Assembly (NCBI GenBank): GCA_039621445.1
Contig: CP154954.1
Span: 49,269,847 to 49,333,846, forward strand
DNA: 64,000 bases
Direction: 5' to 3'
Source: Euglena gracilis
Lineage: Eukaryota
Position 1 is the first letter of the stretch. Each line of letters starts with the position of its first letter. The notes beneath the pieces are model-generated. The model was not told the DNA's origin, did not search any database, and was given only the letters and a program-made list of their open reading frames with translations. Shown one piece after another: positions 55,700 through 58,600 of this stretch. A program made the position numbers and the translations under genes.

Positions 55700-58600
55700 A
55701 TGCCAGTGCTGTTGCTGACCATGGATTCGCTTAACGCCTGTGGACCCCCCCCCCTGACCTGAAGAGTTGGGTTTTTTTGGGGCCACTTGCCCCCCCCCCC
55801 CTAGGGTTGGGGTGGCCATGGGTTAGTCGGGGCTGGACGTCGCTAGTCCAGGAAAAAAATTCAATTTTTTTTTGCCAGTTTTTAATTGGTTTTTAGGAAA
55901 GTAAGTGGGTGGGTGACCCCTCCAGGGGGGGGTCATGCGTGTGTGGGTTTCGAAAAGGGTGGGAAAATACCCCTGGGGGTCATTGAGTGAATCTATGTTG
56001 CTGACCTGTGTGCTTGCTGTCTCCATCAGCATCTGCAGCTCCATCCCTGTGATGCTCGGGGGCCTCCTGGCGTCATTGTGGCTTTTCCCCCCCCGGACAG
56101 CAGCCCCCGACCAGGTTGCGGACCTCCCATGGGGGGAAGATCCCCCCCCCCCCGGCTCAAAAAATTCCCTGGAAATGACGTTTTTCTGCCCTGCGACAGC
56201 TGGGCTGGACCGAAATTTTTTGAAGAAAATGTTCAAAAAAATGACCAGAAATGCTGTATTTTTTTGAGGGTTTTTGGGGCTGGAGGGGGGGGGCAGTCAG
56301 TGCCGTTTTCCCAGCCAAACACCTTATTCCGGCCGGCGGGCTGGAACTCCAAGGGAGGGGTCTCCCCTTGAGACGGCAGTGGTGTAACGCACCGGGGCTT
56401 TCGGTCCACGGCATTCCGCTGGGCCCTCCCGCATTTTATCCTTGGGAGAATGCGCCTCCGCAGGAACTTTTTTCCAGAACAGCGCGGGTTAGAGTCAGGA
56501 CTGGGGTTGGGATTTAGGGTCAGGGTTAGGGTTTTGTTGGGGGTTTGACATAATCTTAATTGCTTTCGGCCTGTGTTTGGGCAAAAAAAAAATGGGGCTA
56601 AATTCTTTCCTGACTTCGGCCTGACTTTTTTATTATTATTATAACACTAACTTTATTCTTGTTTCTCACCCCAATCATAAATATGACCAGAACCGGAACA
56701 GAATAACGCGAATCACGGCGCGAAACAGCAAAATCAAAAGTTGTGCACACTGCCGTATCAGATTTAGATTCCTTGGTGTGTGGGTTTTTGGATTAGTGTG
56801 CTTGTCGCCCCCCCCCCCCCCCCCGATTCCTGAATTGGATCTGGTCCAGCGTACAAGCGATCCCAGGCATCCAAAGAATGGCACAACGTTCCTGAAATGC
56901 AGCTGAAACCACTTTTGATTTCCCGCATGCTCTTGCCTGCCCGAAAAACATTGGTAAAAGTCACAAAAAAAAACACATTAATGGGGGGAATGGGGGGATT
57001 TTCAGGCAATTTCTTTTGTTGCACGCAATAATCAGCACCAGGTTCCGAAATGGCTGACTGATTGTCTGAACACGTCGGAGAACGTCAACCCCAGTTCACA
57101 TTCATGGGCCACAGGCAGAGGTGAGAGAGTTGCCTGTCCAAAGCGCTGACTGCTTGGCTTTTGGTCAACCCAGAGGCCAACACCAGAATGGGGGAAGGGC
57201 AGCGAGGCACCTCAAAGTAGGAAGCACACAAAAAAGGCAAAAAAAGTGCGAAACAATGGCATTTCGAATCATCAGTGGCACCAAGGGTCGCTTCCGGCGC
57301 GGCCCCCGCCCCCCAACGGTCAGTGCCTTCCGGACGCAGGGGCTGGGGTACGACCTGCTGGCGGAGGTGTCGGCCCAGCACTTCCACGTGCTGTACGCCA
57401 ACATCCAGGCCGCGTTGGACGAGGCGGACTACTGGGTCAACTTCATGGCTCAGGGGGACGCCCCTCTCATGGTTTGGGCTGCCTTGGAGGTGGGTTTCCC
57501 TTCCGGACGTGGTGCCACTTGCGGGGGGGGGGGTTCTGGCCAGGCACCTAGAATGGAAAAAAATTTGTTGCGCAACAATTTTTTGTGAGCATCTGAAGAC
57601 ATTCAGGTGATGATTTTCAGTGTCTTTTGTTGTTGTGTGTTTCGGTGTCTTTTTTCATGTATATGTTTACAAAGTCAAAAAAATGAGGGAAGTAGAATAA
57701 AAATTTTATAAGTCCTCCTGAAATATTTTTTTTTCTTCATCGCTAACAGATTTATTGTTCCTTATGTAGAAAGGTTTCAAATCTTCCTGAGTCATTACAG
57801 ATGACCTGAAGACATCATTTTATATGGCGAATTTATCCATAACCATATCAAAAATCATCACTTTTATCATCAAAGAAATGAGGAAGGAGTATAGACATTA
57901 AAAAGTTTCCAGATATATCCGATCCGACCCCCCCCCCCGGAGGGGGTAGGGCACACGGCCCAAAGTGCCCTAGCACAGTCCCCGGCGTCGAAGGCGCTGG
58001 GGAACCAAAAATGGCCTGGGCGCAAGCCAAAATCCGACCCCCCCCCGGGGAGGGGGGGTCGTGCCTGCCTGGGCAGGCACCCCAAGGCACTCCGGGCCCC
58101 TCCCCCCCTGGGGTTGATAAAAAAGCAGCCTGCTCACAAAACAAAAAAAACCTTCACAAGGTCATTTGCTATCAAAGCATTGCTTGCAAGCGTTTTCTCA
58201 GTCAAGATATGTGTATCCAAATTATCAGCAGTAAACTTTATTTTTAAGATATCTCCATTTCTTGGATTCTTAAAACAATGCTAAAACAATGCCACAATCA
58301 AATTGAATTTCACCAGGCAACAGCATCATTTTTCAAAAAAAAAACGACTTCTTTTTTTGCGAATTCCTGCAAAATGGTGTGGATTTCACAAAAATACAAA
58401 AACCGGACACTTTTTTAGTAAAAACTTTTTATATTTGTCCGACATTTTTTCCTGAAAATTTTTCATTGCTGTAAATTCTTATTGTTCAGAAATCCTCTAT
58501 GGGTAATAAATTAAGGTTTTTTGAGCTTCCTATGGTTTGATCCAGTGTTCATGAATTTTGCGTGCTTTTTTGGATGTATATTTCTTTTCACTGAATAAAA

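Follow-up and report, generated by a model that had tools for sequence, protein, structure and literature searches.

Can a small transposon that lands in an exon of a euglenid gene be spliced out of the message so exactly that the reading frame is unharmed? [quoted passage not shown] We show that the element is removed precisely from the RNA and not from the DNA, and we consider it likely that a MITE inserted into an exon of the cyclase gene and is taken out by the nonconventional splicing of euglenids. The features at the centre of this account are as follows (^ marks a cut).

55712-55719, + strand: 5' copy of the 8-bp target-site duplication TTGCTGAC (repeat search)
55720-55997, + strand: MITE-like element, 278 bp, CATGG...CTATG
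55720-55734, + strand: 5' terminal inverted repeat and 5' stem arm (intron positions +4 to +18)
55983-55997, + strand: 3' terminal inverted repeat and 3' stem arm (intron positions -20 to -6)
55998-56005, + strand: 3' copy of the 8-bp target-site duplication (repeat search)
55717-56002, + strand: nonconventional intron 2, 286 nt, GAC-CAT...ATG-TTGCT^G (removal seen in RNA; register deduced from the published code)

The original prediction, made from the letters of the window, had described a 278-bp element that begins CATGG, finishes CTATG and is flanked by a perfect duplication, and this description was confirmed by the sequence itself, by a repeat search and by the pairing of the ends. The element (first letters CATGGATTCGCTTAA, last letters TTGAGTGAATCTATG) is of a size that leaves no room for transposase coding, and the two copies of the duplication abut its inverted ends directly, with 8/8 positions matching. 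When extended, the direct repeat reaches 11 nt, TGTTGCTGACC, at 55710-55720 and 55996-56006 (100% identical), and the order of letters from 55700 is ATG, CCAGTGC and then TGTTGCTGACC. The two extra letters on the left are also those with which the inverted ends finish, and the one on the right is that with which they begin, so that the length of the duplication is 8 or possibly 10 bp. On the DNA level the inverted ends are complementary at 12/15 positions, and all three mismatches become G-U in the sense RNA, in which the arms form 15 consecutive pairs (12 Watson-Crick and 3 G-U). Partition-function folding of the 286-nt intron gave pair probabilities of 0.86-1.0 for 14 of these 15 pairs, and the end duplex reached -23.7 kcal/mol vs -10.9 +/- 3.0 in shuffled ends, a value that none of 1000 shuffles equalled.

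Removal of the element was then sought in reads mapped on 44001-62800 from two raw RNA runs (X21 and X24), a contig run that we presume to be RNA (X15) and a DNA run (X8). In the RNA, 55333 is joined to 55996 through ten intervening letters, which are those of 55700-55709; this means that the element and one copy of the repeat have been removed and an upstream exon has been joined on. The joint was supported by six reads with six start places in X21, by three reads in X24 and by one contig at depth 387 in X15, and it was absent from X8 (0 contigs); in X24 the first mate lay on the minus strand in 3/3 junction reads, an indication that the RNA derives from the + strand. RNA sequencing across the insertion, which had been suggested as a check, therefore found the flanks joined exactly, with one repeat copy left and no such joint in the DNA run. 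We also tested whether the element is no intron at all, either since the mRNA starts 3' of it or since it is retained. What speaks for this is one X15 contig of low depth (203 nt, depth 2.4, 9 mismatches) that is unspliced across 55691-55893; X8 shares two of its differences, T>A at 55824 and 55840, and the contig seems to come from a variant copy or allele with about 95.6% identity that has the element at the same site. The junction reads in all three RNA data sets, including the deep spliced contig, together with an open frame and a homology that is continuous across the junction, show neither outcome, and we give this explanation next to no credence.

The reads cannot place the cut inside the 11-nt repeat, as the junction slides from 0 to +11 and all 12 resulting registers (55710-55995 through 55721-56006) yield one identical mRNA. 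None of the 12 offers GT/GC...AG borders. The published euglenid code is 5'-N3-CDG...CH'G-N5-6^purine (Nomura et al., PMC12501133), and we infer the register from it. The best fit leaves spacers of 3 nt (GAC) and 5 nt (TTGCT): this 3+5 register is the sole one of the 12 in which a Watson-Crick triplet at +4..+6/-8..-6 lines up with the long stem, and it also has a purine (G) as first exon base and a pyrimidine followed by a purine at both junctions; one adjacent register pairs through wobble only. The cut TTGCT^GAC that had been proposed, with these junctions and an intact frame, is thus the most plausible of the 12, and the spliced frame is open.

The host gene lies on the + strand and was traced over ten introns, of which 0/10 are GT-AG. 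After the first two introns, seven more joints were found in the mapped stretch, and a loose end gave the position of the tenth intron; the exon coordinates below follow code registers for introns 1, 2 and 10 and joint coordinates for the others.

55240-55332, + strand: upstream exon (depth and joint; 5' limit roughly 55185-55240 by depth)
55333-55698, + strand: nonconventional intron 1, 366 nt, GCC-CAG...CTG-CCAGC^G (joint as reported 55334-55699; fits the published code)
55699-55716, + strand: micro-exon of 18 nt with the ATG at 55700, between two nonconventional introns (ten letters in the joint)
56003-56053, + strand: exon with the remainder of the hydrophobic segment (RNA joints and frame)
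56054-63742, + strand: rest of the gene as traced, with eight further non-GT-AG introns
57315-57446, 58863-58922, 59129-59164, 59424-59475 and 60139-60260, + strand: further exons (RNA joints)
61280-61408, 62461-62542 and 63585 onward, + strand: last exons traced (RNA joints; intron 10 by code register)

When these exons were joined by script, a single frame was open from the ATG at 55700 across all ten exons. A 43-residue exon matched one database protein, P0001 (EG_transcript_1910), with 81% identity over that exon; this is a 764-aa Euglena gracilis transcript protein with a PF00211 adenylate/guanylate cyclase domain at residues 524-712. The spliced product is collinear with P0001 (193/289 identical, 67%) and shows no break at exon junctions. 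The description of the gene as 'receptor-like' gains support from this collinear homology and from the order of a hydrophobic helix, an outer domain of about 350 residues, a second helix and the cyclase domain, so that the host is, as judged by homology, a putative receptor-type adenylate/guanylate cyclase gene. Pfam searches on long frames and single exons returned 0 families, Rfam gave 0 matches in the whole window, and tblastn found neither a paralogue nor an empty site within the window.

The insertion had been placed at codon 6-7 of the N-terminal hydrophobic segment. Its position inside a hydrophobic stretch stands: the Kyte-Doolittle 19-residue mean is 2.28 at residues 5-23, with the ATG at 55700-55702 taken as codon 1 the element falls in codon 6, and in the alignment with P0001 the motif PVLLLTC continues across the insertion site. 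The codon number, in turn, holds only if the ATG at 55700 is the true start. The upstream exon (end 55332/55333) is spliced in frame onto this ATG and is open for 82 codons in frame, with ATGs at 55130, 55199 and 55220, and in P0001 the helix is preceded by 71 residues; for these reasons the true start codon may lie upstream, in which case two lysines would precede the helix. As a separate observation, the upstream junction AT^G creates a further ATG immediately before the ATG of the micro-exon.

We next compared all ten introns with the code, testing each in every register that its junction repeat permits. Seven of the ten fit (introns 1, 3, 4, 6, 7, 8 and 10), and in the three that do not, namely intron 2 (the element, CAT/ATG), intron 5 (AGG/CCT) and intron 9 (GGC/GCC), the triplet is fully paired at the same positions. 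The introns at 58923-59128 (AGG/CCT) and 61409-62460 (GGC/GCC) were thus seen to be spliced though outside the CDG/CH'G code. In the 3+5 register the terminal triplet of the element intron is CAT/ATG instead of CAG/CTG, just as predicted; the CA/TG core, the most conserved part of the junction stem (Milanowski et al., PMC3935182), is kept, and the third pair alone is altered and compensated (U-A). The accompanying suggestion that stem geometry and not the triplet sequence defines the intron holds in part. Pairing is indeed kept with CAT/ATG, but so is the CA/TG core, and published constraints go beyond pairing: in the mutagenesis of 2025, single CAG or CTG changes abolished splicing, and at the second triplet position pairing alone was insufficient (PMC12501133). 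The idea of pairing rather than sequence had itself been published earlier (PMC4770533). We found no test of a compensated third pair in the mutagenesis reported in the accessible text of PMC12501133, supplements aside, and the present intron, whose third pair is U-A (CAT/ATG), is a naturally occurring case that is spliced efficiently.

In its general build the element intron resembles the euglenid nonconventional introns described from Euglena gracilis and E. agilis (PMC12501133, PMC3935182, PMC4770533): it has no GT-AG borders, a stem at +4..+6/-8..-6, spacers of 3+5 nt, a purine exon start, pyrimidine-purine junctions and CA/TG at +4,+5/-7,-6, and it sits in a host gene with such introns only. 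It differs from the published introns in its third pair, which is U-A (CAT/ATG) and not G-C and so leaves the triplet code unmet, and from its neighbours in the same gene in its junction repeat, which is 8-11 nt long compared with their 0-2 nt. The first three and last five intron bases match the exon flanks at 8/8 positions in the element intron, and only there; in the other nine introns such spacer-flank matches amount to 19/73 (26%), which is the background level. Such a repeat could in principle be a coincidence in an old, ordinary nonconventional intron, given that 84.4% of all E. agilis introns are 'slidable' (PMC12501133). In this gene's nine other introns the junction can be shifted by only 0-2 nt, and by our own arithmetic the chance of an 8-nt match is about 1.5e-5 per intron, so that we hold a coincidence to be highly improbable. 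The complete copying of the flanks by the spacers is, moreover, the signature of a staggered DNA cut, and this bears on a second route, in which the intron moved as RNA, its excised circle being reverse-spliced or reverse-transcribed into the gene. According to reports cited in PMC11282704 and PMC12501133, nonconventional introns leave the RNA as circles, which would provide the substrate for this route, yet reverse splicing leaves no target duplication, and we regard such an origin as very unlikely. Within the same gene, intron 6 (59165-59423, 259 nt; ends CAGGCTTC/GAAGCCTG) has 6/8 spacer bases matching its flanks, which could mark an earlier insertion of the same kind.

Does the window hold other elements of this build? 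We scanned it for perfect 8-bp repeats abutting ends that are complementary at at least 10 of 12 positions and obtained 11 hits vs 0-1 in each of 20 block shuffles, an enrichment that in its raw form overstates the significance since block shuffles destroy all repeat structure. The telling point is for the same reason not the raw excess but a length-specific class of ends, which emerged from a rescan with a low-complexity filter and duplication lengths of 5-10. At length 8, 8/11 hits started with CA (CAG 5, CAA 2, CAT 1); at lengths 5, 6, 7, 9 and 10 there was no CA start among the hits and commonest end triplets listed, and the hits were largely simple-sequence or tandem artefacts. Seven clean elements with 8-bp duplications resulted, the studied one included.

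7191-9103, 9518-9650, 30640-32375 and 37982-39680: clean 8-bp-duplication elements (window scan)
48182-48504, 55712-56005 and 57533-58801: the rest of the seven clean 8-bp-duplication elements (window scan)

The six others have perfect 8-bp duplications and inverted ends of 12-17 nt starting with CAGG or CAAG; end starts in the window comprise CAGGG, CAGGC, CAAGC and CATGG. The second base of the duplication was observed to be T in 6/7 elements, the studied one among them. The elements at 30640-32375 and 57533-58801 share about 510 nt in their 3' parts (score 298). The former lies in an AT-rich stretch of 36-39% GC, and the latter is nested in intron 4 of the cyclase gene, where the DNA word depth in X8 rises to about 242,000 over 58422-59048, a depth that places this element in a very high-copy transposon family. 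The combination of such ends with the duplication also occurs outside exons, which speaks for a feature that belongs to mobile elements rather than one that splicing leaves behind. Transposons of the hAT superfamily are marked by an 8-bp duplication and inverted ends of 5-27 bp, and the ends of Mar from Drosophila read CAG(G/A)G (PMC3517528). The studied element is like hAT MITEs such as Mar in its 8-bp target duplication and short inverted ends and unlike Mar in that its end starts with CAT and not CAG; this apparent likeness is a resemblance in structure and not a superfamily assignment.

A related end had also been suspected at about 37200-37495, and a dedicated alignment and a shared end core bear this out.

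37200-37495, + strand: diverged relative of the element (shared end core GATTCRYTYAA, collinear interior)

The relative carries the end core GATTCRYTYAA on both ends, as the element does, and aligns collinearly over about 190 nt with a score of 84 vs 28.0 +/- 4.6 in 100 shuffles (max 43); in opposite orientation the score is only 37. It lies 18 kb from the element and has no visible duplication. Beside it we observed an open frame at 37010-37201, rich in GC at third codon positions (GC3, 0.87), whose TAG ends exactly at the left edge of the relative; no homologue of this frame was found among 86 candidates. Compared with the whole window by blastn, the element gave weak matches only, with a best non-self E of 0.002 and a match at 37346-37450 at E 0.018.

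The inverted ends, the duplication, the diverged relative and the six other elements with 8-bp duplications and CA starts together support the predicted MITE nature. They also bear on the gain of the intron through double-strand-break repair with filler DNA, which would leave direct repeats at the junctions without a transposase. This mechanism was proposed for intron 4 of gapC in Euglena agilis ACOI 323, a strain-specific new nonconventional intron with 8-nt direct repeats at its junctions that were taken as a sign of recent gain (PMC4770533). The element intron is like it in being nonconventional and in having such repeats, and at our locus, too, break repair would be in keeping with the lack of a found empty site and of near-identical copies of the element. 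The two cases differ in that the E. agilis intron is absent from other strains, whereas no empty allele was found here, and in that a related copy elsewhere and look-alikes with 8-bp duplications in the same window are present here. The 15-nt inverted ends sit exactly against the repeats, the collinear relative with the same end core lies 18 kb away, and six more elements in the window pair exact 8-bp repeats with CA-start ends, all of which makes random filler an improbable source; we therefore think break repair unlikely and favour the insertion of a MITE.

Insertion of DNA transposons that become introns is known from Introner elements of Micromonas, dinoflagellates and others, which are short DNA transposons that turn into introns on insertion (PMC11282704). 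The element is like them in its inverted ends and in a target duplication that is partly used for the splice junction. Introner elements, by contrast, are handled by the spliceosome at GT-AG-type sites that come from the element or the target, and the element described here has no GT-AG register and pairs end to end in a stem.

Several results weigh against the insertion and nonconventional removal of a MITE, beyond the unspliced X15 contig and the overstated excess of hits described above. The triplet CAT/ATG is outside the experimentally defined code, and a paired CDG/CH'G occurs in 0/12 registers. The fold of the whole region is unexceptional (z -0.89; 22/100 shuffles fold equally well), and since the end duplex does beat its shuffles, the terminal helix alone is special. 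The 64-kb window holds a single diverged relative, the end-core motif is not enriched in it (7 matches vs a shuffle mean of 4.9), and paired forward and reverse copies of the core occur at two places only. DNA depth over the element in X8 is 77-126 vs a baseline of about 50, which argues against a young high-copy family at at least 95% identity. An empty site was not found among the X8 contigs, X8 itself carrying the element, and the continuity of the P0001 motif at the insertion point is an observation at the mRNA level only. Metagenomes scanned with a degenerate 19-nt pattern of the ends returned at least 119 single matches and no paired ends, by our own arithmetic about the chance expectation, and these matches were set aside. 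A transposase-like frame did not come to notice in the window, in which no systematic search for one was made.

Elsewhere in the window, record 1 of the RNA contigs in X15 (2035 nt) joins 47962-48086, 49392-49562, 51523-51717, 52524-52700 and 53275-53537, which points to a neighbouring multi-exon gene at 47962-53537. Long (TG/CA)n and (CATA/TGTA)n tracts were observed at 62863-62965, 32355-33096 and 49045-50261.

Taken together, we picture the following course of events. In a nuclear genome of the euglenid type, a small non-autonomous DNA transposon (278 bp, with 15-nt imperfect inverted ends) would have entered an exon of the cyclase gene, within the part that encodes the first hydrophobic helix, and 8 bp (TTGCTGAC) would have been duplicated in the process. 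In the pre-mRNA the two ends would pair as a 15-bp helix that starts 3 nt inside the 5' junction and stops 5 nt before the 3' junction, and the nonconventional (non-spliceosomal-type) system of euglenids would presumably read the geometry of this helix. The 286 nt removed would then comprise the element and a further 3+5 nt, which correspond to one copy of the duplication, and the frame from before the insertion would be restored exactly. A further-reaching and more tentative possibility, about which we have real doubts, is that the euglenid code as a whole mirrors, on the level of RNA, how resident, CAG-ended (hAT-like) transposons with 8-bp duplications terminate: because 3+5=8, insertion into an exon would make an instant scarless intron, and the element at 55720 would be one such case that has been caught, with the six other 8-bp/CA-ended elements as the mobile source population. 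If this is true, the machinery of excision would have arisen as a reader of transposon ends, perhaps out of the apparatus of transposition, and the element in the AT-rich stretch, which may be intergenic, and the one nested in an intron would belong to the would-be source population.

The origin of euglenid nonconventional introns was still described as unclear or merely plausible in the discussions of papers to 2025 (PMC12501133, PMC12621601). Parts of our finding are known in kind, namely the MITE hypothesis of 2013-14, an intron with 8-nt repeats in 2016 and the 3/5 spacer rule of 2025. Relative to the literature consulted, the intact duplication that maps onto the 3+5 spacers, the related copy in the window, the local population of 8-bp/CA-start elements and the natural spliced CAT/ATG variant are new, and in the literature outside subscription papers and supplements we found no report of 8-bp-duplication transposon families as a source of euglenid introns. 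The MITE idea has so far been built on inverted ends and short junction repeats, and a single intron here unites inverted ends with an unbroken 8-bp duplication divided 3+5, a diverged relative and scarless removal. With such a signature the origin hypothesis becomes directly testable genome-wide, and the finding supports the old idea that the introns of euglenids began as small mobile elements.

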